NCBI RefSeq assembly: GCF_037042905.1
Contig: NC_087245.1
Coordinates: 34,908,001 to 34,972,000 of the forward strand
Length of the DNA: 64,000 nt
Reading direction: 5' to 3'
DNA from: Lytechinus pictus
Lineage: Eukaryota
Shown here: one piece after another, positions 6,059 to 64,000 of the stretch
How the letters are laid out: each line of letters opens with the position of its first letter
Numbering within the stretch: the stretch's first letter is position 1
The notes under the pieces: model-generated
Seen by the model: the letters and a program-made list of their open reading frames with translations, nothing else
Database searches by the model: none
What the model was told of the DNA's origin: nothing
Translations under genes and position numbers: made by a program

Positions 6059-6199
6059 TTATGATTATGTATGAAAGATTCAATTAATACTAAGACATAC
6101 ATGTATATTAACAAGTATGCTAGTATATGCACCCTTGATATTTATTACAATCATAACTCTATCAGCCCTTTACCAATAGTCAACTACTGCATATCAATA

Positions 6200-12249: not shown

Positions 12250-12515
12250 AAATAAGTTTTCAAACTGGCCTTGAAATGTTCTACTGATCTACAGTCTTAG
12301 TTTAGTTGGAAGATTGTTCCATAGACGGGGAGCAGCTGATGCAAATGCACGATCTCCCCATGACCGTCTGGTTTTTGGAATAGAAAGATTGAGAGTAGAA
12401 GTCTTAGAAGAGCGAAGACCAGAGCGACCAGGTTTGCAAAAATCAAGAAGATATGAGATGTATTCTGGTGAAGAGAAGGTCAGTGCACGATATGTTATCA
12501 GAAGAATTTTATAGG
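12250..12515 (-). mobile_element. L2/CR1-group LINE ORF2 C-terminal fragment
   Basis: YKILLITYRAL..PEYIS.LL..LRS..L.IPKT...GDRAFASAAPRLWNNLP, followed after a frameshift by EHFKASLKTYL; this is the typical end of an L2-type ORF2. Confidence 0.85.
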
Positions 12516-12632
12516 CGAGACGACGTAAATACAATGTAAAAGCAGAAATATCAGCCACACTGATCCATTATTCTAAATGAGTATTGGAAATGCTACAGAA
12601 ATGTCAATATTCTAATACGTCAAAATTGTACA

Positions 12633-27984: not shown

Positions 27985-28530
27985 AGGGGTACTCCGGGCT
28001 GAAAATATTTATATCTAAATAAGTAGAGTAAAATTCAGAGAGCAAAATGCTGAAAATTTCATCAAAATTGGATAACAAATAACAAAGTTATCAAATTTTA
28101 AAGGTTAGCAATATTTTGTGAAAATAGTTATATGCACATCATCATGAATTTTCATTAGGTGGGCTGATGATATCATATCACATCCCCACTTTCCTTTTTC
28201 TTATGTTATTACATGAAATCATAACTGTTTCATTTTATCATACATGTGTGAATGTGTCTCCTTTATAATGAAATAAGTTGTAAATATCTAATGCACTAAA
28301 TCAGTTGTCAATCCATTTTTTCCAGTTCTTGGTAGAAAAAATTTGAATAAGCCTTATTCAATATAAAAATACAAAAGAAAAAGTGGGGATATGACATCAT
28401 CAAGTTGCTTATTGAATATTCATGAAGACATGCCTAGAACTACATGTATTTCACCGGATGAATGCAAATATTTAAAATGCCATAGCTTTGTTATTTTTAG
28501 TCCAATTTTGATCAAATTTTCAGTGTTTTG
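27985..28530. mobile_element. Kolobok-type MITE, family K4 (right end truncated)
   Basis: Starts aggggtactccgggctgaaaat. Related to full copies at 45632-46227 and 46399-46961 and a fragment at ~15833-16070. Confidence 0.7.
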
Positions 28531-29012: not shown

Positions 29013-30458
29013 TTACTAGTCTCTGCACCAAACCTTATTACTCTTAGCATTTGAAAGCAGAATTTTCTCAGATTATATAAAAATAATATCAAACACTCAC
29101 TGGTTTTAATAAGAATATCATGTTAAGTGAAAAATTATTAAAGAAATCTGGCTCTTCATGAGAAAGAAAAAAAAAGTTTTGAAAATTGAGAAACTTTCAT
29201 TTTTACGAATGACCATGGTAAAACAATACAGCATTTCTTTGTTTTGAAACTTTGTGACATGCATATAAAGCTGTTTAATCATAAATATCCAAAATGCACC
29301 TTAACTCAGAAAAAAAGCCATTTCCTGAAACAAGGGAAGAATCGTGTTGTCTTTATGCACTTTATAATTATGTTTTAATGCATCATGTCAGCCACACGTG
29401 TCTTCCATTTGCTCTCTATATAGATCTATCTGTCTCATTCAGCTGTGCAAATATCAATCATGAGTCATTTTTAAACAACAGCATTTTAGCACCTGGTATT
29501 GTACCATACTTGAAGCTGAACATAAACAATATTTTTCATAATAACTTGATAGATAGACCCTACCGATTATTAAAAAGTAAAGTGGTATATATAATGAGCT
29601 AGACTTGAAACTGAGATGGTTAGAGACAGGAAGATGGGACACTGACAGTAGTAGAGCCTGCTTTTATAATTCTTTTCATTATGAAAAAAAATGTCAATTT
29701 GTTGGCTTGAATTGTTACCTTTCCTAGAAACAATTTTTTGGATAAATAATGTTCTTAAGTAGAATATAGTGACTTTTGGTAGCATTTTGATGAATTTTTC
29801 TTTGTATTACTGGGAAAAGTGATTGTCGGTTTAGCGAGATAGGCATCCTGCGTGTTCATAATTTTCATAATAAATCAAAAAGTTTCAGCTTGCGCTATAC
29901 ACTCGCCTCGGTTGTTTTAAGATACCCATCCCGTTTAGGATTACCGGTACAAAAAGTGCTCAGAACACCCAGTTATTTCAGGATATTAGAAATTTTCAGC
30001 TCGCACTTCGCGCTCACATATCATCTTCATGACCCACTGCAAACAGTCTTTAATAAGTCAATATTGGCCTATAAACAATTTTTGCTCGTGCTTGATTTTG
30101 TCAAACAGGCAAGAAAATTTGTGTCTGGCTTTGCCCCCCAGTTTAAAAATCCTGGTGCCGCCACTGCCCTCAACATGCTTTGGTTGATACTAGATTTTTT
30201 TTCTCTTTAATAACATGCCTGCACATTGGTACAAGTAATACCTGTAGTATTTCCTTTTTTGAATGTAGGATGAATAAATTTACTGAATAAATAAGGACAA
30301 GTGCCATGTCTAGGGATAGAACCCTGACTATTGTTAGTCTGCTATGCAGACTCTGAATGGCTCGTGAGGTGGGATCTCAGCGTGCAAAGCGCGCTGCTGC
30401 TGGTTAACCAGCCTGAAATGGCGAGTGAAGCAAGCCATTTACAGCCACAGTAGACCTA

Positions 30459-31223
30459 GGGTGCGTTTATCTGCCACTTTTTTACCCTAGAATCATGATC
30501 TGAATCATGATTCAAATCATGATTCTGCAGAATCACGATTGCGTTTAGTCGAAATTGAATATAATCATGATTAGAATCACAAACATGAAACACAAAAAAA
30601 GGGGCGTTTGGAAAGACGTTTCTGCAGAATCACGTACGAAAATGTTCGAATAAACGATATCGTGATTACAATCATGATTCTATGATCTCACTGTTGTGTC
30701 GGGCTACTTTCGGTTTGACTCTTGCCAAGCTCAAGACGCTCTATATGCTCATTGTATGTACATGATTATGTACTACGCATGCAATTCTTGTCATGTTCAA
30801 GTTCTGTGTTGGTCATCGCATCGTCCACTACTTTTCATTTTTTGGTCATGTCTTCAACTTCAAGTTCTAACTGGACAGACAATGATCTCAGTTGTTGAGT
30901 ATACAGTATCAATATTAAATTGGATCTAGGCTGAAATTCACTTCCGAACACCATTTTGGATAAACTAACAAGATGAATAGAAGCATATGGACCCTATATG
31001 ATAGAAGTAAACAAAATGAGGTATAGAATTCTATAACTTCCTCTGTCAAACTGCGCACTAGTGATGCGCACTGGATTGGCCCGAATCTGAGGAGAAACAG
31101 CACTGGAATGAAGGTCGTCTAAACGCTGATTCTGTGATATTGTGATTCATGTTTGTGTTTTGAATCATGATTCAAATCATGATTCAAATCATGATTCTGG
31201 CTTGAGGTCTTATAAACGCAGCC
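30459..31223. mobile_element. Harbinger-type MITE with AATCATGATT palindrome repeats
   Basis: TIR gg(g/c)tgcgtttat, TSD CTA/CTA; an opposite-orientation copy lies at 53052-53572. Confidence 0.8.
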
Positions 31224-31507
31224 CTAGTCTGCTATGACTAGTTGAATCAGCTGTGGTACACACACTGCAGATGTGGGTATACAATTTTGTAGACTAGACT
31301 ATTGTTTGTTTAGTCTGGTGCTGAAGACTCTGCCAAGACACCCCCACAAAATGTGTTGCTGACATCCTTCCCCTATCCTGTTTGATTTCTTAATGGAATT
31401 AAAGTCTTTGCTGAATCCATACAGGAAGGTTAACATCTCTTACAAGCACTATTTATAACTTAACCAATTATGTTCTTTCCTTGTATATGGTTTCACAGTG
31501 TATCTAA

Positions 31508-35682: not shown

Positions 35683-36084
35683 TTAATGAAATGTGGACAT
35701 AGGGGTAATCAAGTATCACTGCTCGTTTTGCACAAGTTTTAGGTCACTTGACCAAGGTCAAATGTCATTTAGGGCCAATAAATGTTTAAGTTGTATCATT
35801 ATATGAATGGTGTTTTTAGTGATATAGGATTTCGTTTTTGAAGTCAGCACTGCTGCTATATTGAGACTGCTATAGGCTATCTCTCTCTGTTTGTATCCAT
35901 GGTGTATCATTGTTATTTTTACAACCTTTTTAAACAAAATGATGAAGAAGTATTTTCTCTAGCCTTTATATTCAAATTGAAGTAAAGATATTAACCGGAA
36001 AGTTCACTTTCTTGATGTCGTGAATTTTTTCTTTAAAGGGAGATAAGAAGGATACTGTCAGTCAATCATTTCAGTCTATTCTAA

Positions 36085-36614
36085 AGGTCAAATCCACCAC
36101 AGAAAAATGTTGATTTGAATAAATAGAGAAAAATCAAACCAGCATATGGATGAAAATTTATCAAAATCGGATGTTGTTATGACATTTTAAAGTTTTGCTT
36201 ATTTTTCACAAAACAGTGATAGGCACAACTGAGATGGTCGATGATGTCCCTCACTCACTATTTTGTTTTCTATTGTTTTAATCAATGATAAGGACCAACT
36301 TGACTGAACCATATAGTATTAAACAATGCTAATTCCACATGTGCATGGAGGAATTAATTGTTGTTTTACTTGACAGTGAGGAGAAAATTAGAATATTTCA
36401 TATAATAAAATACCAAAGAAATAGTGAATGACGTCATCAGTCTCCTCATTTGCATACCGACCAGGATGTGCATATTAACTGTTTTGTTAGATTAAGCGAA
36501 AAATGTCATAACTTTCTTATTTTGCATCCGATTTTGATGAAATTTTCAGTGTTATGCTGGTTGGATTTTTCTCTTTTTATTCAAATCAACTTTTTGTTGG
36601 GGTGGACTTGTCCT
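36085..36614. mobile_element. Kolobok-type MITE K1 copy
   Basis: aggtcaaatccacc ... ggtggacttgtcct followed by TTAA. Confidence 0.8.
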
Positions 36615-39600
36615 TTAACAAATACAACATTTGCAATATTAGCTGTACAATTTCCTGCGTGAATGTTATTCCAGAACCCTTCAGGTTTAAGGAAGGAAAA
36701 AATACATCCTGTCATACAGTATTATACAGTATTTGGTTCCGTTCTCGATTCCATTAACTCAGTCTGTTGCCTGAATGAAGGTAGGCATAGTGAATGTCTT
36801 CCTAGTACCCAGAGGTAATACGTGGGGGATTTCCTGACACTTGGGATAGACTGCGAAGCCAATGCTGTGTTGCTTTGATGAATGAGCCCATTGAGTCATT
36901 CGACCAATGCATGGCCATTGTCATACTGCTGGTTCGGTAGACCTCGATTTGTAGCAAGTTTCGAAAACAGTGAGCAGCGATTTCAAATAGATAGACAGTT
37001 TTACGACATTCTCTGTTGGACGTAATGAGCTGAAAGTTCATTGCCAAGAAACAAATCCTTGTCTGTCAGAGTACTAATTAGTCCCCAGACCTACTTTTCC
37101 CTTGTATCTAATACTACCTGTTGTCAGACATCACGGAGCTGCAAATTAGGAGACATAGAATAAAGAGAGTATCTTGAAAGTGCTTGATGTACAGTACATG
37201 CATGCATGTGAGGGTGATTATTATGCAATCAGGCCCCATTCATCGCGTGATAATTAGTGGGGCCTCTATCAAAGTTCCGTTGTTGTGATAGTCCCCTGTA
37301 ACACCTAACTTGGTTTGGAATCATCATGCCTGGTGGATCAGATTGAAACTCTCGGTGGCACCTGGGTCATAAGACAAGAAGGAAACAACAAATTTGTTTT
37401 GATTTGTCAACAAGTAGCGAAGATATAAAGTGATTGATTGTGATTGCCAGCAGACGTAATTGATTTGCCAGTCTGTTGGGTAGGAGCTTTTGGGATAACT
37501 AGTGAAAAATTTGATGCTTCACATTATTTTGTTCTAAAAAGGAGAAATCATGCCAACGGCCACAAAGAGTAAGTTCTTTATATTTGTTTATACATTGTAT
37601 ACAAATAGTAATTTATAATCCAGTGACTTTTTTATATCTCTACCAGAGTTGTGACAAGAGTTTATGATATAAAACTACTTAGTGAAAATGTATAGGGTGG
37701 CATTGGGCTAGCAATATAGGCATGGTCTATCCCTACAGAGTCAATATAGAGTACCGAAGTGTGACGTCACTGTCATGACAACAAACTGGCTGGTTCTAAA
37801 TAGAGTCGCAGCTGATGATCGTCTATACATATTTGTATTTCAAAAAAATTACCCTCATTCTAAGGTTGTAAGAGATGAAATTCCGTTAGCAGACACTTCA
37901 GAGACTGAGTTCATCATCTGTCAATATTTTGAATTATTTTCAGGCATAAATATTGAATGTTCAAAACTGAATTTTGACTCCTATTGTTTTGAAATTTTAT
38001 AGACATTATAAATAAAGTAAGATAGAATAATATAAACTTGATGAAATTGACACCAGGAAACATGGTCCTCTATAGTTCTATAGGCATCACTATAGTTCTA
38101 TAGTTCTATAATTCTTAAGGCATCGCTGCAGGCAATTCGGGCCTTTGGACAGAATTGATAAGAATCATCACCTTTTAAGAAAGTTGTTGCAGCAAACCAT
38201 TTCTTGAGAAAGTCTTTTAAATCAAGGTTAATTGTTACCATATCCTCAAATACTAAGATCTGGTACACATACATTAATGTAAATTTTTCTTTGTGAAATC
38301 ATGAAATCTTAGTTCAAAACCGATTATTCCGATGATGACTAACACAGAAAAGTATACGTGGGACAGTGTATTTATATTGGTTGGAAAAATACCCAACATT
38401 TGATGGAATTCTATACTTATTTTGCTCATTTCTCAGCAATTATGCATTTTCTTCCAGCGCCATTTGGCACATATTTTTTCATTTATACTGTATAAAACAC
38501 TTGGGTGGTAATTTTATTGGATTCTGTTCGAATTCATTTTGAGATCATTGTTACCACAACTGGTATTTGACTTACGCATTTTGTATATAGATTAATATGT
38601 GAGTATGAATTCTGCATACTTTGTGTATGTAAGGTTAAAATCTATTTCTTATCTTTAATCAGCGATATTACAATGGGAACCCATTAAATGTCTGTTTCTT
38701 GTCCTTTTTCCCTTTTATACGATTTTAACTCTCAAAAAGTTTGTTTGTTTTGAATGTTTCCCTTTTCTAACTCATTTTTTGTGTTTGTTCTTGTATGTAA
38801 GAGATAGGAAGTGCAGTCAAAAATCAAGAAATGCTTCAAATGTAATTAAACCATGATTGGGTTAAACTTTGTGTTGCATTTTAAATATGATGGTGATCTG
38901 CTTTTCTATTCAACATTAATCAATATAACAGTTAAAGGACAATGCCTGATATTGATACCATGCTGTGTCATGTAAATATTCATGGTCATTGCCAATTAGG
39001 GATTAGACCCCCCATGTCTGTGAGAAAAAAAAGGAAACAATGTTTTCATATTTCCAGCTGTCTTACTGGCATGAGTCATGTGAGTCATTAAGAAAAAAAT
39101 TCAGCGATATTCATTAGCACCTCCTCACTAGTTCTTGTGAATATTCATGATTGAAATTTTCTTCACTTTCTTGGTCTTGTACTCCTACAGAATAGAAGGA
39201 AGATATTTAAAAGGAAAGGTGAAACAGTTTAATTTGAGTTTCTTTTCTTCCCTATAATTCATAAAGTGGAAGAAAAGTGTGGAAATTGTGTTTTTTTGTT
39301 GTTAAGCTATGGAATAGGATTCCATTTAGTTTAAGGAAGTATAAAGAAATAAAAGATATTCATGAGAACCTAACCAGCATTCATATATCAAATATTTACA
39401 GACCTTCACGGTCTGATTGTAGCCTATCATTGAAATGAAAAATCGTATCAAACTTTCTGAGAAAGGATTCTGTGTCAGTCGATGATTGATGCTTCCTCCA
39501 GAATTTCAAAATAAATCAATCCCTTCATAATACGTCATTCATCACTGTTTCCTCTTTATTTCATATATCATAATTAATCTAAATTTTCTTCACTTACTTG

Positions 39601-41088: not shown

Positions 41089-43783
41089 TAATTCCCTCAG
41101 AGGCTCTCACAGGTTTTTGTTTTTCACGTGAATGGAAGGGGAAAGATTTTCTACTTGCAAGTTGGCTTCTCTTCCTTTTCTAGACCTGGAGAATTACTCG
41201 GTCTCTTTCTTTCTATTCAGGTGTCTTACCAGAAATTGTTACAATCCTAAAGACTTGCCCCTTTTTTAACCGGCTTGTGCTATTAATGAAGTTTCTGTTC
41301 ATGTTAACAGACCATCCTGTATCTTCTATTCTCATCACAGGGTGTCATGTGAAGTGACTTTTTAAAAATTATTAATTTACTGCTTATTGAGACACTAAAT
41401 AAGGGATAAGTAAACAAATTGTATAAAGAGAAATTCAAGTTTAATTTCAAGCAAACTGTTGTGGGGTTTAAATACCATTGAATAGAATAGACAAGTCAAG
41501 TTGTTCAGTTTCAATATGAAATTACTGTCATCAAATTGTTGTCCATAAATGGAAATTTGTCCTGTTTACATGCCATGCAAAAGCATAATAAAGACAACAA
41601 AATTAGATAAATTCATACACCTGCAACATGACCAATGCAATCTATATTTGGAACATAACAAACATAATATTACTCACATAATAAGACATAGCAGTGGTTT
41701 TTTTTAATAACAAAGGCATTAGGTGAGTTTATTGCAATCATCTGAATTAAGGAAAGACATTATTAGATTTATTTAATTGTGACGTTAATGTAAATATTAA
41801 ACGCCTTATCCCAACATACATGTAGATATATCATATTTTACATTTCAGGTTGGGTAATGTATTCATGTATACTTGAAAACATGGATCATAATCAGATAGG
41901 AAAGAGGGAGATAGAGGCGGGGGGGGGGGGGGGGGGAGATAGAGATGAAGAAGGGGAAAGGAAGAGAGAGAAGAAAAAAGAAATAATAATATAGTCAGTT
42001 CTTGTATAGCGCATAATTCATTATGAATATATTCAGCCTGGAGCACCCCTTTAGTATGACCTAACAATCATGGTTGTTCTCACCACTTTGAAATGAAGGA
42101 AACTTGTGATAGCACGCATTAGAGTGGGGTAGAAATTAGTTGCATTCATCATCACCACCCCCCCCCTTTCCTGACAGAAGCAAACTCTTTTAAAGTCATC
42201 ATCAAAAAAAAAAAAAAAGAAACAGTTCCAGGAGTTCAGCCAACTAGACACCATGTTCCATATCAATTTGTGTATATTTTATAGGGATTCTAGACCAAAT
42301 AATGTGGTCTTGAATACTCTCATGCATCCAATGTATGTATGTTCCATATGGGATTTCTATTTACATTGAATGCTCATCTGGCAATTGCTGTATAAAATAT
42401 GGATGGAAACATAGAGAGAAACCAGCAGTGAATGTTTTTGTAATATATATAATAGTGATAGTCATAATAAACAAAACACTCATGAACAGTTCAGTGAATT
42501 CAAATAGAAAGAAGAAAGAACAGTAAGGAGAAAATAAAGCACCTGAATTTGTAGATTAATCATGTAGGCCAACAATTGACACTGATTTATATTAAATATC
42601 TTAGGATTGCTAATATTGCTCTGAAAGAACTCTGCTAATAATTGTACCTTATTTCATTTTTGTCCTCATACAAATAAATCAAATTTTGACATTCACCACA
42701 GACCCTTTCCTGTCTTTACTACAATGGTATATCAGAAATATGTTTTACTGGATACTCTTTTAAAGAACAGGAAATTGGGAGACAAATTGTCCTGATTATA
42801 AAGTGAGAGCCAGAGGCGGTGGGTATGGCATCATTTTTCCATTCATCCTAATAGACGAAGGTATCAATGAGACATATTTTGGTGTTTTTCATATCCGTGA
42901 TGTGGTGATTCTGCTTTGTTGTGTGAGAAATGAACGAAGGCAGATTGTGGTTTTTATGTGAGCATAAATGAATTCATTTATTTTACACATTATTAATTCA
43001 CTATAGAATGAATTGGGATATGGTAGGCGGTAGCTGATATCCATTGTGACCCCATTAACAGTGGATATCATTAAAATGGTAATTAGAAAAGTACACACCA
43101 AGTGATTCAAAAGAAAAATATATTTTAAGGCTTATCTTGTTATATTTTCCAGCTTCCTGGAGAAGGTTCTTGGCACCAATACAAATTAAGGGTGTGTTTA
43201 TTCTTCCATTTTGAAGACAGAATCACCATTTTTCATTGTCCCAATGGCATTGATATAATTCAATCATTAAAAAAAATCAAGTGTTTCATAGTTACATTGT
43301 ACATTATTACATTGGATTCATTGGACACACATTAAAAAAATAGAATAGAATATGATATCATGCTGAATATTTTGCTAAAACAGGAGATCATGTGTGTTAT
43401 TTTTAGGTACTGTTTTACCCCATCCCTCCATCTCTTCTAAAGACGATCCTCAATGGGTTTTTTCCCCCTTGTATTTTCCTATGATGATGAATATTTTAAC
43501 AGAGGTTAAGATCAGTGAAATAATGACATAATGATCTAGGTGTTTTCATACCCACTTGTCACAGAAAGTTCCTAAAAAATATTTCTTTATTTAGGAATTT
43601 CTACCCAAATCATAAAACAAAGGTTTTTTCAGTCTGAAAGCAATTTACCTGTAATATCCTTGATGAGGTTACCCTCAAGTTACTCTTCAAAATTATGAGA
43701 CTTTTCATGGGAATATATCCCAAGGTCTCAGGGTTTTTTTCAGTTAGAAAGCAAATTATAAGTACTGGTACTTTCATACTTTA

Positions 43784-44346
43784 AGGTCAAGTCCACTACA
43801 GGAAAATGTTGATTTGAATAAATATAGAAAAATCAAACTAGCATAACGCTGAAAATTTCATCAAAATCGGATGGAAAATAAAAAAGTTATGACATTTTAA
43901 AGTTTCGCTTATTTTTCAAAAAACGGTGATATGCACAACTCAGTGACATGCAAATGAGACAGTCGATGATGTCCCTCACTCACTATTTCTATTGTTTTTT
44001 ATTGTTTGAATTATACAATATTTCATTTTTTACAAATTTGACAATATGGACCAACTTGATTCAACCATACAGTATCAAACAATGCTAATTCCATATGTTC
44101 AGGGAGGAATTATTGTTGTTTCACTTGACAATGAGGAGAAAATTAGAATATTTTATGATGTCATCGGTTTCCTCATTTGCATACCGACCAGGATGTGCAT
44201 ATAACTGTTTTGTGAAATTAAGCGAAACTTTAAAATGTCATAACTTTCTTATTTTACATCCGATTTTGATGAAATTTGCAGCGTTATGTTTGATGGATTT
44301 TTCTCTTTTTATTCAAATAAACTTTTTGTTGGGGTGGACTTGTCCT
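43784..44346. mobile_element. Kolobok-type MITE K1 copy
   Basis: aggtcaagtccac ... gtggacttgtcct followed by TTAA. Confidence 0.8.
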
Positions 44347-45631
44347 TTAATATTGAGGCATATAAGAATACTAGTCTTGTTCCTTGTTATCCTTACGGTG
44401 ACTTTATTTGGTAAAGTGGGTGTGAACCCACAAAATGAATTAGGCAGGTATTTTGAAGCCAGAATAAATTGTACTAATTCTTGTAATTGAGAGGGTATGA
44501 ATTGAAGCGCCTTCTGAGTGAAAGTTTGTTGAACCTGTGAACCCCATTTATGCATGTGATTGGATAGTCTACATATCAGACACTTTGTCACGAATCTGGC
44601 TCAGTACATGTTTTTACATGTTCAAAATGGGCAAAATACACATTTTTTCATTAGTAGGTACCAACACCCCTTTTCATTTCACACAGGTATTTAACCAAAT
44701 ATCACAGCATTATTGCCCAATTAGTGTTGGAGTTCACAATAGACGACTGTGTACATGTAAATGGCAATTTATGCGTTTTTTTACAAAATGGTTCCTTTGA
44801 TTAAAATTGAGTGTAAAATTTGATTTATTCATGAGATAGGATTCATATCTTCAAAACTTATTCTTAGAACCCTTATATTTCACTGGCAATCTTAACCTTG
44901 AGTGAGACATACACCCACTTGGTGTTAATGATTAATTGATTAATTAACTAATTTATATTACATAATTTGTACATATTTCTCCAATGTCGGTATTCTGCCA
45001 ACCTGAGCATATCAAGTTCTTTTAAATAAATCAATCAAACTTGAATGAGGTGACCAGAGATTATGTTTTACGAGACAGATTCGAGTTTAGTGAGTTTTAA
45101 ACATAAATTAGATAGTTAATTCACCTTCAAAGGCCAGGGGGCGGATTCTGAAAACAATCTGTAACATGAAAAGCTGGTGCCATGTTGTTTCCTGGTACAG
45201 ACCCCAATAAGCTCAAAAACATGTCAGAATTCATATACAAATCCAATGTAAATTTTTTTTTTAGCCATCATTTGTGTATCATTATTTCTGCTTTTACTGA
45301 TTAAGCTCAATTAATTTGTTCTTGTTTATGATCAGAATAAAAGTCAGCAAAGGTTCTTTGCATGTGAAATTTTGTCTTCATTTATTGATACTGGATAGCA
45401 AGATTTGCTGATTTAGCATGACAGAAAACAACATTTTAAGCATCAGTAACAGGAGGTCAAACCTTTGTACATATATAGAATGTGTAGTAATCCTGAAATC
45501 AGAAATGGTTTTGAAAAAAAAAAACTTGTTAGATCAATGTCATTGTTTCTCTTTTGTAAAAATATTTTACAGAGTAATTTTTCTGTGAGGCATATTACGC
45601 AATATCTGCATCCATTGCAACTTGCCTTTAT

Positions 45632-46227
45632 AGGGATGGTGCAGACTGGAAATATTATATCTCAATAAATAGAGTAAAATTCACAGAGCAAATGCTGAAA
45701 ATTTGATCAAAAGTCGGATAACATATAACAAAGTTATTGAATTTTAAAGATTTGCATTATTCCGGTGAAACAGTTCTAGGCATGTCTTTATGAATATTCA
45801 TTAGGTGGGCTGATGATGTTATATCCCCACTTGTTCTTTTGTATTTTATTATATGAAATTAGGTTTATTCAAAAATTTCCTACCAAGAACTAAAACAATT
45901 GGATTGACAACTGATTAAGTGCATTAGTTATTTATTGCCGCAACTTATTTCATCATAATGGAGACACATCATTTACACATGTATGAACAAATGAAACATT
46001 TATGATTTCATGTAATAACATAAGAAAAGGAAAGTGGGGATGTGACATCATCAGCCCACCTAATGAATATTCACAACGATGTGCATATAACTTTTTTTCA
46101 CAAAATAGTGATAAACTTTAAAATTCAATAACTTTGTTTTCTGATTTTGATGAAATTTTCAGCATTTTGCTCTGTGAATTTTACTCTTTTTATTTAGATA
46201 TGAATATTTTCAGCCCGGACCATCCCT
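45632..46227. mobile_element. Kolobok-type MITE K4 copy
   Basis: agggatggt..ctg ... cagcccggaccatccct; flanks TTAT/TTAA. Confidence 0.75.
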
Positions 46228-46398
46228 TTAAATAACTTGAGAGGTTAAAACAATAATGTATGCAATATATTGTTGTCATGTTGACTAGATGAATGATAGG
46301 GACAGCTATACCCATTGTAAACAAATTTTTGATATGAACAAACGTCAAGGCCAACTCACTTACACCATAATTTCTTGTTTCGAATAATTTATCATTAA

Positions 46399-46961
46399 AG
46401 GGGTACTCCGAGCTGAAATAAATCAATAGAGTAAAATTCATCGAGCAAAATGCTGAAAATTGAATACAAATATGATGAATATATTAAATTTTAAGGTTTA
46501 GCAATATTTTTTTTAAAGTAGTTATATGCACGTCGTCATAAATATTAATTAGGTGAACTGATAATGTCATGTCCTCATTTTCCCTTTTCCTATGTTGTTA
46601 CATGAAATCATCGTTATTTTATTATGCATGTATGTTAAATCTCCCTTAAAATGAAAGAAGTTGCAGAAATGAATATCTGTACTGCATTCAATCAGTTGTC
46701 AATCCAAATATAATTCTTGGAGGACAAAATTTGAATAAACATAAGAACATGTGGGGATATGACATCAATTCACTCATTGAATATTCGTGAACAAAAGCAT
46801 AACACTGTTATGCTGAACTAATTCAAATCTTTAAAATGTCACAACTTCGATACTCCTTTTCTGTTTTTGATCACATTTTCAGTGTTTTGATTTTTTGTCT
46901 GATTGTTTTTAATGTGTTCAAAATTTTGAATCATAATTTTTCAGCCTGGAGTACTACCCCT
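46399..46961. mobile_element. Kolobok-type MITE K4 copy
   Basis: TTAA aggggtactcc ... ggagtactacccct TTAA. Confidence 0.75.
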
Positions 46962-51488: not shown

Positions 51489-53051
51489 CAGATATACCAC
51501 TGTCCAACACAGATGTTGAAATCTATGAGACTTACTTCCATCAAGGATCCTATGAGACTATGAGTACTTTCACCTTGCTAAAGCAAAACTGCTAATATAA
51601 TTGCTGTATATATACCGACATGCAACACATTTACAAATAACAACCTGAAAGTATGCTGCAACTGAATTTTCTTTCCAATTCTACTTCCGGCATCATGTGA
51701 TGTAATGTGATCAGGTTGTTTTTCCAGTTTCACTTTTTTAGACAATGTCATAGAAATTAATAAAATCTCTAAAGTTCTCTACATATAGCCCTATACAGGT
51801 GTGTAATAGTACCCAGAATACCTGTGATTGTGTATACACTCATTTGTGTAGGAGCATTATAACACAGTCACATGACTGATAATACATCCTGTCTGAGCCA
51901 GCCTAAATAATTCTGATAAGCCTGACATTGAGGCTAATTGCCACCTTTTTTTCTGTCAAGTACATTCAGTCTGTTTGTTTCAATACTTGAGGACTTGATT
52001 TTGGGATTTGAGTCAACAGTTTGTTAATATGTCTACCACGGAATAGCGTGATCTCTACTTTACTCTTGCTAATTGTCCATGTAATTTGTGACGTACATGT
52101 ATCATTCAAAGTGCTTATACTGTACCGGTACTATTAAAGGAAGTGTGGTTTTATTCAAGGAAACAAATTGGATTGTGAGTCAAATTGGATGGGGAGTTTT
52201 CTCTGCTCGTGCTGTTTCGTTTTGAAGGATATGTTTCCATGGATATTCAGAGATTTTTCGTAGTTGCACCTTCTAAATTGTGCATGGAACCTCATCCTTG
52301 ATGTGAATCAAATGTACTGCAAATGCATTGAAGATCTAGCAGATCAAAATGTCTTACAAGAATAGTGGGCATCATCGTTTCTGTTTTTCAAACAGCAAAA
52401 AGGATTTCAACATGAAGTGTTGGAATATTTTGTGCTTTTGGATTAAAATAATTGAATTTAGTTCTTTTTCTTCACTTATCATATTCACGTGACAATGAGA
52501 GTCATAAGCATTGGAAAATATTTTGCACTCTGCATTTCTTATAATTTTTCATTGAACCTGAATATGTTTATTTTGTGATTATTTTGATTTGCTTGACTTT
52601 TGATAATGATAGCTGCGAACCCCATTGTTGTATCTTTTAGCTGTCTTGTTACTTATTGTCAATTATTGTAGATTGCGGTGAGTTAATTAGATATTGTTAT
52701 GGCAACATTCAGAGTGCATTTGATGGGCTTGCCTTTTGGAGTGTTTATGACCTTAATTGTAAAATCTTTAATATAATTTCTTGTTGGGCAAGCATTTTTT
52801 TTTTTTACAGTGAATATAAAAAAGATGTTTTTTAGGGGGGTTGTTACATATATTTACAATATTCAATCATTAGTGTGATAGATTATTATTGTTATAAAAA
52901 GGGAACATATCCATGATTTTTTATAGTGGGGGGGGGGGGGCCCTTATTCATGTTTGATCATTCCCTTTCAATTTACCTGAGAAGTATTGTTTTGTCTGGA
53001 TGGGTCATTGTCAAGGTGATTGTAACGAGATATTATTTGGATTATGACTAA

Positions 53052-53572
53052 GGCTGCGTTTATCCGACCTCAAGCCAGAATCGTGATTTGAATCATGATT
53101 GGAATCATGATTCAAATCACAAACATGAATCACAATTACTACAGAATCAGGGTTTAGACGACCTTCGTTCCAACGCTGTTTCTCCTCGGATTCGGACCGA
53201 TCCAGTGCGCATCACAGTGCGCAGTTTGACCCAGGAAGTATAGGTCAACGTTGGACACTTAATTGGAGGTCGGCGACGTACATGTGATGTGACAACGTGG
53301 GGCGCGCGCCTTGGCAAGAACCGGAAATAGCTCGACACAATGACGTCATATAATCATGATTCAAATCACGATATCGTTTATCCGAACATTTTCGTACGTG
53401 ATTCTGCAGAAACGTCTTTCCAAACGCCCTTTTTTTCGTAGTTCATGTTTGTGATTCTAATCATGATTATATTCAATTTCGACTAAACGCAATCGTGATT
53501 CTGCAGAATCGTGATTTGAATCATGATTGGAATCATGATTATAGGGTAAAAAAGTGGCGGATAAACGCACCC
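53052..53572. mobile_element. Harbinger-type MITE (family of 30459-31223)
   Basis: ggctgcgtttatccg ... cggataaacgcaccc, TSD TAA/TAA. Confidence 0.85.
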
Positions 53573-56149
53573 TAAGCATGCTATGTATCTATAATATGGG
53601 CTTACCCTTGGGGGAAGATTACTGATATGTTTCAACCAAAGGAGTTAAACAAGGTTATCCTTGGAAGAGATCATTGTCCTCTACAGTCTACGTTGTGATA
53701 CTGGATATAAAGGCATTAGTAGTAAATTCTTCTTTTTAATTAGGGCAGTAATATTTTGGAAATCTAAAAAAAAAGGGGGGGGGGGAGGGCTAATTTATGT
53801 CAATGATTTAGATATATCTGCCTGATTTGCTAGTTGTTGATTATCATCAACTTGCTATTATAGCCTGTATAAATTGTATACAAAATTCTTGCGCCTAGCG
53901 ACAACTCACTTACCAACACAGTTCCCATCATCCTTTGCATGACTTCCGCATAGCAGTCTTCCTTTTCGTATTATGCTACCCATGGAGTAACATTACATGT
54001 AACTCCTAATCATTTATCCACCTCTTATGAATAGATATTCTTGCATATTTATGCCAGTGGCTGAACTGGGAATATACTTTGCACCACTTAAATAGATAAC
54101 AACTCATGTTAGCCGAACCTGACTACACTTACTATTTATGACAAAACTTGGATTGATAGGTTTTCGTATTAGTGCTGAAAAAAGGCTCATATGTGTTCAT
54201 TTGACCATTTCTCATGAAATTTTTGCCAGTTTTATATAATAAATGCTAGTTTACGATTTTAAAATTAGATACAATATGATTTGGTTATTTTCATATCCTG
54301 CTATTTTAAATTGCCTGTAGCATTTATTTGAGACACACTGTATGTGTAATGACATGTGTACGTCATTCGGATTTTATCTGAAAAGAAAGAAACCATTCTT
54401 TTCATATATAAAAACCTTGTTGGCTTACCTCAAACAAAATAACCCTATTTGTGGTTGCTGTTGTGGTATATTGAACATATAGGCCCGAATTCACAAAGGT
54501 GGACTAAAGTTATACCCGGGGTATAAAACGCGTCATTTGACGTCATTTTAATCCATGGACTAAAGTTAGCACCTAGGGGCTAACTTTTGCGATTCACAAA
54601 GGTCGACTAAAGTTATACCGGGGTATAAAACGCGTCATTTGACGTCACGACTTAGTCAGCTCTTTGGGGTGGACTAAATCGGTGGGTTAAAGTTAGTCCA
54701 CTGTTTTAACCAATCAGAGAGCAGCATTTCGATTGCGGAAAAGTTTGCTGCAAGAAAAAAGTTTTTTTGGCAGAGACGAGATTCGGTGTGATCGGCTTAT
54801 CTAAAGCTTCATATTTCACGACTTCGACCGAGATTGTAAGTAAATTACATAATTTTTGGAGCTTAAATCATGACGGAGCCTTCAGTTCCATCTGTAACTA
54901 TTATTGATAGCTTTAACTTTCCAAAAGGTATACTCGAAAACTTGAAATGGTATCTGAATCATTGTTATCGTCGCGTCTCTAAGCTGCTCAGTCCCAGCCA
55001 TGTACTTTTGTGTGCGTTCATATCTATGAGCATTGCAGTGCGAGACGCAATTAGCGTACACTACACAGGCCAGGTAGGCGTGATTGAAAGGTCGATACTA
55101 TTTGCTAGTTATGTCAGGCAGTGATTTTCGATTTCGTGTGATTTTCATGGAATTTTTATTGTCTACGATACCCCTGCCACTCCTCCTGGCCTTGCCAACA
55201 CAGCTACTACTGTGCATCTAATTTTGTCTGAGACTGAAGCAAGGCCAAGGCAAGTCCAGGAGAGCAGCAATACAAATAAGTTTTTTTTAAACACTACAAT
55301 ACAGAGCCGGTCTAACTTAGACATTCTACTCTGGGCTGGCTTTGTCTTGGCTTGGATAGATGGTCAAGCTATGAAGCTTACCTGGTAGCCATGTTAGAGT
55401 TAGTCCTACAACATCGTTGGAGTAAAACAAATATTTTAATAAGGGTCAACTCTAACTTAAGGCTAAGCCCTGATTAAATTATTTTTTGAAAAAATATTTA
55501 ATAAACTAAGATTGGGTTCCACTCACCGCTGTTTACTCCAACAGCTATAAATGAGCTGATTTTACTTTTACTAAAACTAAGTTTTACTGACCTTTGGCAT
55601 TGCATTTGCGATCACTTATAGATTTACGGTGTCGTCAAAACATTAAAAAATAATGGAAATCCTAGGCCTAATTGATTATTTGAGTAGATCTAACTGAGGT
55701 CTAACTTTGAAAATTCTCTCGTTTGGGGGTTATTATAAACTCTACCCCACCCTCTTTGTTTCAAGTATTTTTTTTTCACAAGGAGTCCCAATGTTATATT
55801 CACATGAGACCACAGACAAGTGCATTTGATCTTCAGTCCTCTACATTTGTAGTAGACCGATAAATAGGTTTATTTCTGTCAGGGATATGCTCCCCTGAGA
55901 TTTCATGTGGCTCCGCAGCATCCCGTCCCACCAAAAAAAAAATCAGAAAATGTTGAAAGACTCCTCTGAAACAGCGGATTTTATCAATCTACATTTGTAG
56001 CTGCTTTATTATTTTTTTCTTTGATATACAGTACCTTGACATTGCAGTATGATTGATGAATAAATATTTTTTTCATTATTTTTTTTCTTCCATATCAGCA
56101 ACAGACCATACATACTCGGCAGATTGTGCTCAATCCAGACAAAGCAAAC

Positions 56150-58935
56150 ATGGCTCACAATTTTGAACTGCTGTGCCGTCTTGCAAGAGAGTGAGGTATG
56201 TCTTATCAATTCATATTAAAAAAAAATTAAATGTCATTAAAATGGCCTTTTTTAATAAAATATTATTTCTGGGATTTGAATTCATCATGTAATTGTAAAT
56301 GTATCATGTGACATGTATGTTACTTTTTCATTCTTGTCATAGTAATTGACAAAAAAGAAGAGGGGGGGGGGACCTTGCTTGTGTGTTATTAACATATATA
56401 TTTGTCTACTGGTCACTTTGACACTAGGCTTGTTGATCTCCAATTAATCCTGACATTTTGTTGAATATTTATTTAAAAGAGAGAAAGAAAGCATTGTCAG
56501 TCTGATGAATGCCAGGGAGGGGGGGTAGAAAAAAAGGTTTAATGAGACTTTGATGAAGATTCATGAAAATATGTTATTCGAAAGTCACTCGCAAGCAATA
56601 ACCTCTATTTGTGTAAACAAAGTTCCATAAAATTAGTGCCTTGCCTTCATTATTAAAGCCAATTGAAAGTGATTCAGTAAATCAGTTTTCATAGAAGCAT
56701 CTCTATGACGTGCATGGTTTGATCAATGATGATGATCAGCAACAATTGGCAGGTTTTTTTTCTTCACTTTTACAAGTAGGTAAATAGAAAAGCTACTCAT
56801 GTCAATTAGAATTTTAATCCTATCTTTTTTTAAGGATTTCTGTATAATCTTTCACATTCTGTCCCTCATTTTAAACACTTTTGAATTAAATGAAATTCAA
56901 AGAGTAAATTGCCCATTCATGGTGACTCTTAAACGCAATCTTTTAACTTCCATGCAGATTCAGCAACACATACAAAGACCACAGCATGGATTAAGAAACA
57001 GGAAGAATCCATTTGAATAATACGAGGATGAACCTCTCAGAGTGGGGTACCAACAGAGACAACCACACATTGCCTGTCATGTTACAGGTTTTGACAGGAC
57101 TTTGTTTTATGTCATTGGTGAGTTTTCATGTGCGAACTATAAAGCAGAGGGTAATGGGGGGGGGGGGGGGGTCAAATTATGTTCTATGAAAGTGATTTTC
57201 CAGGCCAAAAATGATGAGATTTTGATAAAGAACAATTCGACTAGCAAAAACCATCAATATTGGATGGAGAATTATGAATTGATTCAGTTTTAAAGTTTTA
57301 CATAACTTGGGGGAAACAGTTCTGTGTATCTCATATGCAATATTCATATCCCCACTTGTTCTCTAGTGATCTGAAATCATAATCATTAATTTTTTTCCTC
57401 CAGGAATGTAAAAATGGGGTTGACTGCTGATTATATATTTAAGATAGTTATTGCGAGTTCAGAATAATGTAAGGATCAATGATTGGAAGTATCTAGTCAT
57501 GAAAATTAAGTTTTATGTTTTGCTTAGCATGCAGATTTTCCATTGAGTAATTGTCGCCAGAGCAAATATCATGGAACCCTTGTACATTCATGTGTGGAAA
57601 ATGTGTGGATGTGACATCATCAGGCTATTTCTTGCATATTCATGGAAACATGCACATGTTTCACAGAAATAATTAATGCAAATCCTAATATTCATTATTA
57701 ATCATCCAAAGTGTATGATTTTTGTTTCTGCTTTCAGCCAGGAGTACTAGTAACCCCTTACAGGGGAGGGGGAGTGTTGGGGGTATTTCACAGAAAGGTT
57801 TTTGTCGGAATGAAGCACGTAACCCTTTGGGTTGGAAATAGGTGGGGATTTTATTTTTCTCTCATTTTTTACAATGTAGCAACATTTTTTTAAATACAAA
57901 ATGTCATATTCAAGTGGGAAATTATCATGAAGGATGATTTATAACCACTCAAAAAGAAATATTGGTATGTCATTTCAGCTAGAGAGATATTCTCCATTTT
58001 GCATGGATTGTTATTGCAGTAGAGTTTTTTTTTAATGAATTGAAGAAAAATCTCTTTAAGCAGTTCCAGTGCATCATAAACATCAGGTCATAACAGAAGC
58101 ACAATGTTTGCAAACGTAAATGGTAAAGTATCAATTGGCTTTCATATCAATAAACCAATTACATAACATCACTTATCATACGATAACTAAAGGTACCTTT
58201 TAGAAGATGCAAGCAGACGAAGCAACTATATCACAGTCATCCGTGTGCAGAATCATCAAAGATTTTTCTGAGGCAATAGCAAGGAGTAACAGTGAATAAA
58301 GTTTCCAATGACGAGAAATTCAAACCACCCAGTGACAATTTGATGATTGCTACAGGTTTCCAAGAGTCATAGGTGCTATCGATTGGGGCCAATCCAGGCC
58401 ATGTCTACATCAGGAGTCCTGATGGGGAACAAGCCCTGTACTTAGCAGGAAGAACAGGTCTTCTGTAAATGTATAGGTTGGTATACTCATTCAGTTTTCA
58501 ATGTGATATTCTCTGTATTCAACACCTACTAGAGGTATGTGATAATGAAGAAAAAATATATTGGCCCCTACTACATGTCTTTTACTGTCTTTTATCAAGT
58601 TTCAATGTTGTTGGTCAAATTTTTTTCTAATTTTATACTTTTAATATGTGAAATAAGACAATTTCAAAGATTTCACTGAAGAAAAAAAATATAGATAATC
58701 TGCTAACTTTCCTATTGCAGGAGAAATGAACAATAGAAAAAATGCATTTTGCTTATTCAGGTAAAGGATGTATTAATTGCTTGATCAACGAAGATATATT
58801 TCCAGAAAGAATACCGAAGAGCAAATTTTCTAATATTCATTTTGTTTTGATCCTTATTGCAGGTATCCGTTGCTCCTCTCTTTGATGAATTCCTGCCTGC
58901 ATTCTGTTGTCAATAGAAAAGGACGGTGTGCTACG
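56150..58935 (+). pseudogene. Intron-split Harbinger/HARBI1-like (DDE_Tnp_4) transposase pseudogene
   Basis: Exon remnants: 56958-57117 RPQHGLRNRKNPFE*YEDE..YRF; 58193-58476 GTF*..ISQSSVCRIIKDFSEAIAR..KFP..FPRVIGAID..GHVYIRSPDGEQALY..RKNRSSVNV*; 58863- (G)YPLL.SLM; possible first exon 56099-56195. Contains stops and frameshifts. Confidence 0.8.
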
Positions 58936-59782
58936 GGTATTAAGCATTCCATTGGATTATCTGTGCATGAAAGTGGACACTTGTGATAAAAATATGGTAG
59001 CTTGGTTGATAGGATGTATTCATGCATTCCGATTTATCATTAGTGATCAAATGACCATCTTGCTTCTTAAATCCCAAAATCACAACATTTTTCTTGTTTG
59101 ACAAAAGGTTTGGGACGTGAATTCCAGGATATAAATGACACACATGATGGGCTAATGTATAAGCAGGGACACGAGAGGTATAAGCAACATTTTTTTTTGC
59201 TTAATTAAGTTTGGCATGAGATGGACTTGGTCTTTTTTATGATTCAAGTCGATTTTATACCAAGTTTGTTTTAATCAACAATCAATGTTTGAAGCCTCAT
59301 GATTTCAATTTTAAAACCTCTTTGTTAATTAAACAGTCATTTTTCTTAGCATATGCAGCTTCTTAATTTATCAAATTTAAATTATAAAATGTCATTTTTG
59401 CTGAATATCCTTTTTTCCACCTATTTTCATAGACCCTAAGATACATTTCTGTAGTAAGCACTATAAATACATTGCAAGCTATTATCATTTGTTTGATATT
59501 ACTATTTTATAGAATCATCCTTTAATTTCTTTCAGAAATATATTTGACAAATTACTTGTGATATTCATGCTTTAGCTGTAGAGTTTAAAATCTTCATTAA
59601 ACTTTTTTTAATCCATTGTTTATCTATTTTTATTCAGAGTTTCTGATGCATTGTTAAGAAAACGTAAACAGTCTATTCAATCTTCGTATCATTATGTAAA
59701 GAATATCAATCTACCTTAAAAAGTAATGCACTAAATAAACTGCTCTGTCTACTACACATGTACATATAAGTTTTGATTTTAA

Positions 59783-60349
59783 AGGTCAAGTCCTCCCCAG
59801 AAAAAATTAGATTTGAATTAATAGAAAAAAATCAACCGAGCATAATGCTGAAAATTTCATCAAAATCGGTTGTAAAATAGGAACGTTATGACATTTTTAG
59901 ATTTGGCTTATTTTTCACAACACAGTTATATGCACAGATCAGTGACATGCAAATGAGACAGTCAATGACGTCCTTCACTATTTCTTTTGTTTTTGTTGCT
60001 TGAATTGTACAATATTTCATTTTTTACAGATTTGACATTGAGGTCCAACTTGATTAAACCAAAATTATAGTATTAAAATAATGCAAATCCCACATGTTCG
60101 GGGGGGGGGGGGGACTAATCTTGGTTTCACTTGACAATGAAGAGAAAATTTGAATATTTCATCTAGTAGAATAAAAAGAAATAGTTTGCATGCCGACTGG
60201 GATGTACATATAAGTGTGTGGTCAAGCGAAACTTTAAAAATGTCATAATTTAATATCTTTACATCAGATTTTGATGAAATTTTCAGTGTTACGCTTGTTG
60301 GGTTTTTCTCTTTTTATTCAAATCAACTTTGTGGGGGTGGACTTGTCCT
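59783..60349. mobile_element. Kolobok-type MITE K1 copy nested in the Harbinger element
   Basis: TTAA aggtcaagtcc ... ggtggacttgtcct. Confidence 0.8.
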
Positions 60350-63300
60350 TTTATATCGTTTTCAAGTAATTGTGTCAGGAGAAAACAAAAATGAAATTCT
60401 TTTATCAATTCTGTCCATATGCTGCATGGTTCATCGTTCTTGCAGGAGGCAAAAAATAAATTTATATAAGAAAGACTTATTTTATTTACTTTCAGATAAA
60501 AATTGTGCTAAGGAGAGATTAAGGTTATGTGTAAGGCAGGGGTGGTGGTAATGGTATGTTGGTTAAGGTTGTTTATGAAGAAAGTCAAGTGATTGCTTGC
60601 TTGTGCAGGAGGATATACTTCAAGAAACTTGTTGTAGGGTATAATGCAAAATTATTATAATATAATTTAATTGAGAGAAAAGTATTTGGCACGTTAAGAT
60701 GCACAATAATGTACATGTGATTGAAGCAAATGTGATTGAAGCAAATGAGAAATGAAAGGAGTAAAGGTAGCTACATGTGTCAATGAAAGAATGGCCAGTG
60801 GTGTTATAGTATAAATCTTTGTTTAAAAGTTATTTTATTTAAGGAAATTTAGTCCGTTCAGTTTGAAAGTATAGAGGGAGGACCATGGACCACTGACCAT
60901 GGAAAAAAGTCCCCCCCCCAAAAAAAAAAAAAAAAATATTATAACCAAGGAAAAAAAAGAAAGGTGAAACACATTTTTTCTGAATATTATGTCAAATCTA
61001 TCACAAAATTGGATATTTGATACTAAAATTTTGGATATTTTTCCTTGCTCGCAATTTTTTATTTTACCCGATACGCCATATATTTAGCCCCCTCAAAATT
61101 TTGGGCCTAATACGTATGCCACTGATATTTCCCCAATTTCAAATATATTATTATGATTGGGTGGAATACCCTTTACACTTATCCAGGGTTGATAAGTCTT
61201 TATTTTTCTGATAAGGAAATTGTGTTTCCTTTAAGGAAAAAAATACTGCAAGCATGGTGAATAGCTTGACCCCCCCCCCCTCCAAAGCAAACTGGAGTAT
61301 ATAGGTTAAGGTTGGGAATAATGCGATTGCATGAGTGACCAGTGAGTGTGGAGGAGCTACTAATGAGTATCTCAGCTCCTTTTAGAGATGTTGGTAGAAC
61401 TGACGTATGGAGTAGGGAGGGGGGGCTTGGGGCTCTTGCCCCCCCTAAAAAAAAAAAAAAAATTCACGACCAAGAAAAAGATCAAAGAAATGAGGGTGAA
61501 ATAGAATATTTTTTTGATATTATGTGAAAATCTAACACAAACTAGAATTTTAATGTCAATTTTGAAAAAATTTTGCTCGCTTAATTTTTTTTTTTTTAAT
61601 CAATTTATCGAGATACACCATATAAAAATACGAGAATAAATAAATGAATTGAAAATATTACTTCGAATGGGAAAGTCAATTCTGAGGGAAAGGAAAAGAG
61701 GCACGCTTGTGGACGCGAGATCAGATCAAGGTCATGTCGCTCCGCTCCACGCGACGCTGGCCCCACCATTTACCAAGTACATAACCCAAACAAAGATTCA
61801 ATTCCATATTTCCATTTTCTATCAAAGCTAGCTCCGGGCAAAGTTCCACCGGACTTCGATAAGGTAGGTAGGATTATACAATCAGATTGGTTATGATTTA
61901 ATTCAAACAAATGTGCACTTGATCTAGATGTAATTGGCGTGTAACTTTAGATTTATTTTTCCGTAGATCTAAGTAACTTCCTCAGGCCTAAAACGCAGTT
62001 ACGGCACGCTATTATAGGCCTAGATCCACGTCAAACTGCACTGTAATACGATGGCGATCGATCTGGACTTCATATTAGACCAAAAAGGCAAAAAAAAACA
62101 AAAAAACTTTGGTCTCTGTCATTGTTCCGCTGGACTCCGTTGCCTCCACTAACCAATTGAGAAATAAGAAATTGAAAAAAAATGTGTAAAACCCCCTCGA
62201 AAAAGCCGGCTGCTGCGCGCAGCTGTCTAAAAAGGTTAAAACTTCATCACGTTGCAGTGCACCTACCGCACGGTACCGTACATTGACGGAGTTTGAACTT
62301 CTCGATACGGTACGATGCTGCAGGCGCAGTCGAGCTAGCTCGCATGCAGGCAGCGCTAACGTTAGTCCGAACCTAAGTTGGTAAATATTAACAAATAAGT
62401 AATGACAATGTTCGTTGTCAACACCTCATTGCTAAGAAATTCAAGTTCATGCTGCTGATACATGATTTTAGGGTTGAGTTCTGCTTCCTAACTCATGTGA
62501 TGCAATGACGACATTTCATATGGCCCTAGCAGACGAAACTCTCAAATACGGCACTGAGCATGCTCAGTACTGCTTTATTACACTGAGCATGCTCAGTGCA
62601 GTGTTATAATAGTATGCTAGCTTCAGTCCATGATTTAATCCATGGACTAAAGTTATGACCGGGGTATAACTCAGCCGTGGGTTAAATTTAGCACCGGGTG
62701 CTAAAGTTAGTCCATGGATTAGTTAGTCCACCGTTTGTGAATAGCGCGGTGGACTAACTTTATACCCCGGTATTAGTTAACCCCCGACTAAATTTAACCC
62801 CGGTATAACTTTAGTCGACCTTTGTGAATTCGGGCCATAATATACATTCAAAATCAGTGCATGGACCATTATGATGATTCTTTTGTTTCTCATATTGTAG
62901 ATAGTATTTCTTTCTCATTTTTTCCACTAAGATGGCCAAGTTCTTTATACATTTGTTGCAAATTTTTCATTTATTGTTAAAAGGGTTAAGCCGACTGTGA
63001 TGGTTATTCTTCCATGCTAAAAGAAAGATTTTAATAGCTGTATTACAAATCCATGTATGATCTCTATGTGAATGGATTCTTTCATTTTGTGGCTTCAAAT
63101 GTATGCTGTGGCTTGTGACTCAATTCAAAGTGAACAAATGTGCACAACCACATGTATGGCAATCACGTCTCACAATTCAAGTACTACATGTGTATCATTC
63201 ATGCTGCCTTTTTGCAAAAGCTTTCACTTTCTTTTTAATATAACTCTGAGTCTGAATAGTATAATGTGAAAGTATGAGATTGCAATATGGTAGTACAGGA

Positions 63301-63760
63301 TACCTGTGTGTGGATTGCTATGGGAACTGCCGGGGGGGGGGGGGGGGGGGGGGCTCAACTACATTGCTGTACACACACATGACCAAATAAACATGTAAAA
63401 AGGGCATTTTTTAGTCTGCTGGGCAAACCCTTCACTCGAGTAAAGGGTCTGAATTGCAGCCTGCTCATGCCTTGTGTACTGAAGGCCCTCTCGCTCTGAA
63501 CTGAAACAGCAAGTTTTGTATGTGCTAGTCTTTGCATGGAGACACACTTCTTGATCAAAGTTTCAATCAGGGTCTGTGCCTGCAGACTAGGCATTTTTTG
63601 CTGATCATGGCACATCACATGCTTAACTTTTTTTCAGGTTATTCTTGTTTAGGGGGCAAATGAGGAGAAAATTTGAATTTTTTCATATTTCATATAATAA
63701 AATACAAAAGAAATAGTGAGTGAGTGATGTCATCAGTTCCCTCATTTGCATACAGACCAG

Positions 63761-63917
63761 GGGAGTGTTTCATCAACATTTTTGTCCGACAAGTTGTCAG
63801 ATCTGACATCTTTCCTTGATGTTGATTGGCTAAGAAGCACTGTTACTATGGCAACTGTCGGATAAAACAGGACTTGTCGGATAAAACGTGTGACAAGTCC
63901 TTTCATGAAACGCTCCC
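63761..63917. mobile_element. Short MITE nested in a partial K1 element (~63660 to window end)
   Basis: TIR gggag(t/c)gtttcat, TSD CAG/CAG. Removing it restores gaccaggatgtgcata, as in the K1 copy at ~44187. Confidence 0.85.
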
Positions 63918-64000
63918 CAGGATGTGCATATTTTATGAAAATAAGCGAAACTTAAACATTTCATAACTTTCTTATTTTACATCCAATTTTGACGAAATTT

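Follow-up and report, generated by a model that had tools for sequence, protein, structure and literature searches.

A long PIF/Harbinger element with well-preserved ends and a decayed transposase gene in Lytechinus pictus, probably mobilised in trans

The DNA analysed here, referred to as the window, comprises 64,000 nucleotides of the sea urchin Lytechinus pictus (contig NC_087245.1, positions 34,908,001 to 34,972,000 of assembly GCF_037042905.1); all positions are numbered within it. It contains a Harbinger element of 8355 bp (54482–62836) which possesses the cis-acting parts of such a transposon but neither of its proteins, and for which mobilisation in trans is, with good probability, the simplest account. 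The element most probably belongs to a family of long non-autonomous PIF/Harbinger elements in a sea urchin of the Lytechinus type. An earlier inspection (the sequence-only reading) had proposed that the unit was mobilised in trans after its own transposase had decayed. This proposal is supported. Frameshifts of the transposase gene and its 21-codon deletion are found again in high-depth contigs of another organism, every bin of the interior is deeply covered while the right flank is not, and several loci carry intact spliced relatives. Among the features of PIF/Harbinger elements (PHIS superfamily) it has a remnant of a HARBI1/DDE_Tnp_4-type transposase, terminal inverted repeats (TIRs) and a 3-bp target site duplication (TSD); an intact D-D-E triad in an open frame and a second, Myb/SANT gene, which mark an autonomous member, were not found in it.

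The left TIR (54482–54516, plus strand) and the right TIR (62802–62836, minus strand) are complementary at 34 of their 35 outermost bases, within the range of 25–50 bp recorded for fish Harbingers (PMC9179366). They are flanked by copies of ATA (54479–54481 and 62837–62839, both plus strand), a 3-bp identity expected by chance alone at about 0.02. The terminal 17-mer occurs four times in the window with three or fewer mismatches, against 0.10 expected, a count reached in none of 100 shuffles. Two of these matches bound the element and the other two a 425-bp miniature inverted-repeat transposable element (MITE) at 4226–4650. Only the first 21 bases of this MITE are those of the element; it has long internal inverted repeats, a different subterminal sequence and flanks of ATA and ATT, and it probably belongs to a sister Harbinger family. 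The element's ATA is none of TWA, ANT and CWG. The flanks of both the element and the MITE are also compatible with a 2-bp AT duplication plus one extra terminal base, and from two sites a TSD consensus for the family is not definable.

A palindromic 12-mer forms an array at either end, with nine matches on the left (54501–54699), where the block 54489–54545 is repeated at 54592–54647 with 96% identity, and twelve on the right (62629–62817). Of its 52 matches in the window, 21 are no more than about 220 bases away from one of the ends, a figure which tallies repeats and does not test enrichment, the motif having been derived from these ends. An autonomous Harbinger needs, besides its DDE transposase, a Myb-like protein which binds terminal or subterminal DNA (PMC13668399, PMC9179366), and the arrays are candidate binding sites for such a partner. 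The ends are CpG-rich on the left (54501–55250), likely the former promoter region of the transposase, and on the right (61501–62836), where the Myb/SANT gene would be expected. The observed/expected ratio is 1.22 at 54501–55000 and 0.75–1.58 at 61501–63000, versus 0–0.66 in 55251–61500 and 0.56 over the whole window. The TIRs, exact TSD and CpG-rich termini described in the sequence-only reading were all seen again on recomputation.

The interior had been described as encoding a DDE_Tnp_4 transposase split by GT-AG introns and broken by stops and frameshifts, with 58193–58476 singled out as the place where HARBI1 similarity ought to be found. When 58204–58476 was translated with X at stops, three of ten candidates were matched, all of them sea-urchin "putative nuclease HARBI1" proteins (best E-value=1e-12). 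The reference used thereafter, P0004, is the 353 amino acid "putative nuclease HARBI1" of Lytechinus variegatus (RefSeq XP_041461903.1, XP_041467027.1 and XP_041469107.1), itself a DDE_Tnp_4 protein (E-value=4.7e-35). Frameshift-aware spliced alignment to it scored 460, versus 73–103 for three shuffled proteins, and gave three exons with GT-AG introns between 56150 and 58476. Over the aligned codons of residues 1–187 the remnant shows 64–78% identity to P0004, and its exon breaks coincide with breaks in the gene models of P0004 and its relatives. Exon 1 (56150–56195, plus strand) covers residues 1–16 with 9 of 14 codons identical, is two bases short and ends at a GTATGT donor (56196). Exon 2 (56958–57117, plus strand) corresponds to residues 17–91 (39 of 52 identical), contains frameshifts and a stop at 57018, and lacks 21 codons (residues 48–68); its GTGAGT donor at 57118 was read by eye, the alignment script preferring 57122. 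Exon 3 is the segment 58193–58476 (plus strand; residues 92–186; 70 of 90 identical; donor at 58477), and contains four stops and four frameshifting indels, including a 10-base insertion at 58387 directly after the codon of the first catalytic D. Exons 2 and 3 together thus hold five stops and several frameshifts, and no open D-D-E frame; their best-fitting divergence from P0004 is 0.10–0.12 each.

Of 134 proteins compared, the P0004 family is closest to all three exons (35, 108 and 234 bits, versus at best 19, 63 and 212 bits outside it), and a profile of 105 distant homologs also picks up exon 3 (86 bits; shuffled maximum 35.5). Gene models made independently for sister subfamilies have a break at the identical junction after Q186: P0310 and P0312 read on into the intron, and P0290 and P0299 begin there. 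Pfam searches of 18 whole-frame and 15 short-frame raw translations gave no DDE_Tnp_4, transposase or Myb match, and the DDE_Tnp_4 assignment of the remnant comes solely via P0004; weak WRW and Pyr_redox_2 matches, unrelated and under the cut-off, were rejected. A HARBI1-like transposase in spliced and broken form is therefore present as described, but with only residues 1–187 of 353 clearly recognisable.

The half of the transposase to which the second D and the E belong is absent or survives as a borderline remnant. Under BLOSUM scoring residues 188–353 gave no score above shuffles, and an alignment of residues 188–310 was rejected after 34–131 of 200 shuffles had equalled it; residues 188–236, which include the second D, were not detected in the element. 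With codon-decay scoring only one of the C-terminal stretches, 58863–59005 (plus strand; residues 237–300; 17 of 47 identical), exceeded column shuffles, none of 100 matching it, but 2–3 of 86 other stretches of the window did, so that a strongly decayed 3' exon at this place is possible and not established. An AG acceptor in the phase to be expected marks the start of the stretch, which has the E region deleted and, if real, is far more decayed than exons 1–3. It fits sister subfamilies slightly better (28–29 bits) than the P0004 family (24 bits), which would suggest a mosaic.

The second half of the transposase–Myb/MADF pair invoked in the sequence-only reading was not recovered. A frameshift-aware profile of 121 Myb_DNA-bind_5 proteins, seeded from the metagenome contig L002, reached at best 28.6 bits in the element, not above 15 shuffled profiles (26.9 +/- 2.3, maximum 31.6), and did not support a Myb-like reading at 61700–61860 (minus strand) spotted by eye; the profile of distant transposases, used as a control, did recover exon 3. 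A decayed Myb remnant may still be present, since Myb/SANT proteins diverge between families (PMC9179366). Contig L002 itself holds a distant Harbinger with an intron-less transposase (60–1002, plus strand) and a convergent Myb_DNA-bind_5 gene (1554–2225, minus strand). P0004 matched 13 distant loci in metagenomes at 27–47% identity, none with the element's TIR, and exact TIR patterns had no match in metagenome, viral or prokaryotic genome contigs.

Intact relatives of the transposase, with open reading frames (ORFs) of 338–353 amino acids, are present in L. variegatus, L. pictus and Strongylocentrotus purpuratus. The P0004 protein is identical on three contigs and has two further near-identical loci, which suggests a recently copied transposon rather than a single host gene; a 350 amino acid sister transposase of L. 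pictus is identical on five contigs. The active spliced Harbinger which had been predicted elsewhere in the genome has possible counterparts at several RefSeq loci, and its presence in the genome of this element is suggested by the proteins of two Lytechinus species. P0001 and P0004 are two annotated isoforms of the intact transposase; the 15 residues which distinguish them immediately precede the second catalytic D, and alternative splicing is a possible cause. The L. pictus clusters P0024 and P0025 comprise many loci whose transposase is cut off at about 218 amino acids and does not reach the second catalytic D; the repeated loss of the 3' half might hint at a regulatory role.

Four of the 24 listed sequencing runs were aligned to 53600–63640 at 85% likeness, and the evidence comes from these; X1, X6 and X10 represent organisms A, B and C, respectively. 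Of the other runs, X21 and X22 are smaller ones (share 0.00) from the sample of X6. Contig depth served as a proxy and, summed depth being no copy number, the element is described as multi-copy only. In X10 no interior bin is below 180, and those without nested repeats have depths of 180–900. The two cleanest flank bins are at 13.1 and 0.61; another bin on the left flank, at 70, owes its depth to a small separate repeat. In X1 the interior lies at about 10–130, versus 3.4 and 0.76 in the cleanest flank bins, and in both runs the depth drops below 1 in the first bin fully outside the right TIR. Peaks in the terminal bins reflect short high-copy relatives of the element's ends. A joint from 54650 to 62811 in X1 with 39 other letters (depth 117) marks a short derivative which has lost its interior and kept the ends of the element.

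The lesions of the transposase gene recur in these contigs. Contig 12 of X10 (depth 473) extends across exon 3; it has 19 substitutions there, and the 10-base difference at 58387 is its sole indel, so that the three other exon-3 frameshifts are common to organism C, while contig 10 (depth 268) crosses the exon-2 deletion with six gap letters and hence shares it. Since these lesions are found in deep contigs of organism C, they are older than the amplification. The 10-base insertion is absent from X10, present in X6 and present throughout X1 (0 of a depth of 49.8 without it). In four deep X1 contigs 11 of 2558 bases are unlike the window (0.43%), against about 10–12% between the exons and P0004. 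The eight listed contigs of X10 and of X6 differ by 6.0% and 1.8%, respectively. No RNA data set is listed as a carrier of the element. A raw RNA run (X23, about 6% read) showed no splice joints among the rows listed, and 95% of its aligned reads continue unlike the element.

Several observations weigh against a long family moved in trans. The TSD is ATA, whereas PIF/Harbinger in the strict sense has TWA (PMC4482050), and the profile search detected no Myb remnant in the element. The comparison with the intact relatives covers their proteins. Only the window copy has the stop at 57018, since X1, X6 and X10 all have C at 57020, so that some decay followed insertion, and the eight listed X1 contigs taken together differ from the window by 3.0%, so that older copies also exist. 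No listed contig spans the whole element (longest aligned piece 1463 bp) and no second full-length copy was seen among them; the 15 of 243 joints that were listed include no empty-site joint. Finally, depth cannot be read as copy number.

The history which we favour would begin with an autonomous element whose intron-containing transposase was closest to the P0004 family. As the sequence shows, its 3' catalytic half was lost or wrecked, stops and frameshifts gathered, and other MITEs inserted into it. As the TIRs and subterminal arrays were retained, the full 8.4 kb would still have been a substrate for the transposase and Myb-like partner encoded by intact relatives, which would bind and excise it and insert it again with a 3-bp duplication, following the known Harbinger mechanism. 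The lesions shared in deep contigs suggest that copying went on after the death of the gene in at least two lineages. That the unit moved whole, that its helpers share these ends and that the event was recent are points which we infer.

The most serious competing explanation is that the many copies of the interior are duplicated blocks or deletion derivatives which overlap one another, and that the 8.4-kb unit has rarely or never moved whole. It is in keeping with the want of a listed piece spanning the stretch, with the short derivative described above, with the zero depth of X6 at 61305–62309 and with the families of partial derivatives in Caenorhabditis inopinata (PMC13668399). We nevertheless consider it unlikely, as in X1 and in X10 alike every interior bin is covered, with depths of the same order which fall below 1 in the first bin wholly beyond the right TIR, and both ends and the TSD of this copy are intact. 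Less probable still is the single insertion of an autonomous element which decayed in place, its ends remaining fresh by chance or through gene conversion from MITEs. At least one stop (57018) is indeed private to this copy and the high-copy short relatives of the ends could donate conversion tracts, but the exons are about 10–12% diverged and rich in indels beside TIRs matching at 34 of 35 bases and an exact TSD, and deep contigs from organism C, whose run barely covers the right flank, have the frameshifts and the 21-codon deletion as well. Decay in place is thus nearly refuted.

The sequence-only reading had itself raised the prospect of two independent short MITEs on either side of host DNA. 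Short elements with these ends do exist, as the derivative joint and the first 21 bases of the 4226–4650 MITE demonstrate. However, neither end of the element is a complete MITE: each has a single TIR, the two face each other, and no other TIR-like 17-mer lies nearby. What they enclose encodes the matching type of transposase and, far from being unique, has high depth in public contigs, and this explanation can hardly be entertained. A long non-autonomous family moved in trans remains the preferred account.

The signal from organism B deserves separate mention. Long contigs of X6, at depth 4–8, cover most of the interior, and one of them, of 1463 bp, spans a nested fragment and exon 3. The element in X6 is about 98% identical to the window (75 differences in 4101 bases of the eight listed contigs), is closer to it than that of organism C and has the A-type 10-base insertion which organism C lacks. 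X6 is nearly without three repeats which organisms A and C hold at high depth (bin 63315–63640: X1 9740, X10 129667, X6 0.59); the nested fragment at 57285–57619, at 1192 in X1 and 3976 in X10, lies in X6 at 7.3, the baseline of its element, and a K1-type MITE is present (1428). The lack of repeats abundant in organism A makes simple dilution of organism A DNA a poor fit. It is conceivable, if rather doubtful, that the gene-dead element was mobile beyond the split of A and C and was then, at a recent date, transferred horizontally, with its nested repeats, from the A lineage to the more distant organism B; the signal comes from one run in summary tables, and low-depth repeat assembly can distort such ratios. 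No organism B flanks of the element were seen in the X6 contigs.

The cargo and nested insertions ascribed to the element proved to be nested repeats, and no captured host gene was identified. Intron 2 contains repeat-family fragments (57282–57697) with 67–81% identity to copies near 16000, 28300–28430 and 45730–45940 and a depth peak in X1 and X10. A K1-type MITE (59783–60349), presumably Kolobok-like, has AGG...CCT ends, is flanked by TTAA and TTTA, and has three other near-full-length copies in the window with 71–80% identity. A high-copy fragment at 60880–61124 (left edge approximate) reaches depth 2611 in X10, versus about 500 alongside. Its right end is presumably hAT-like, judged by a terminal motif with one mismatch (61115–61124); of the insertions named earlier the MITE is real and the hAT label is an assumption.

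Further copies of the K1-type MITE lie at 5458–6061, 36078–36618, 43780–44353 and 63650–64000, and a family related to it at 15828–16063, 27980–28530 and 45627–46889. Directly to the left of the element, 53046–53574 is a repeat with 12-bp palindromic arrays, the two parts of which match two parts of 30457–31229 at 90%. A 453-bp tandem duplication (18460–19369; 99.6% identity) adjoins older units which are 75–83% similar. No host genes were recognised around the element, none of 35 ORFs (of 50 listed) matching Pfam, and no tRNA was found; one open frame (12289–12567, minus strand), without a Pfam match, we presume to resemble the end of a long interspersed nuclear element (LINE) reverse-transcriptase protein.

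The element is of a known kind: it functions like a non-autonomous Harbinger, with a transposase of that family. It resembles MtPH of Medicago (PMC2213677) and Harbinger-1M_cIno of C. inopinata (PMC13668399) in being a long TIR-bounded derivative with a pseudogenised DDE gene, an intron-containing transposase and nested insertions. Those families have TWA TSDs, in contrast to ATA here, and the expanded long class of C. inopinata keeps an intact MADF gene (PMC13668399), whereas here neither gene is intact although the long unit appears amplified. Unlike P0004 and its relatives, which have intact ORFs annotated as host genes, the window copy is broken and has no clear 3' half. The truncated HARBI1-like models of L. 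pictus in the P0024 and P0025 clusters (148–233 amino acids; 13 sequences) are likewise multi-locus and keep the N-terminal half without the second D and E, all nine that were aligned ending before D234. They form a sister subfamily (exon scores of 19, 53 and 190 bits versus 35, 108 and 234) in which, unlike the element, the ORF of the N-terminal half is still open. Harbinger-Snek of sea kraits has relatives in sea urchins, occurs in multi-copy variants with a solo ORF and is reported to have been transferred horizontally (PMC8437027). No snake protein was among the best 120 of 1535 matches to P0004, and at the protein level Harbinger-Snek is probably a different family. Titles and abstract openings gave no published description of the present family, though supplementary family tables (e.g. 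those of PMC4482050) may hold one.

The element would add a family to the repeat annotation of sea urchins, and many RefSeq genes of Lytechinus named "putative nuclease HARBI1" are probably recently copied, intron-containing Harbinger transposases. In a model animal such transposases would be a possible native tool and would give rise to polymorphic insertions. If the signal from organism B is real, it would represent the horizontal transfer of a large element without a working gene, and the recipient would need a compatible transposase or a co-transferred helper. The ages are layered, the dead gene being at about 10–12%, organism C at about 6% and organism A at less than 1%, and this would make it possible to test cleanly for what length of time a borrowed transposase can sustain a large element without coding capacity.

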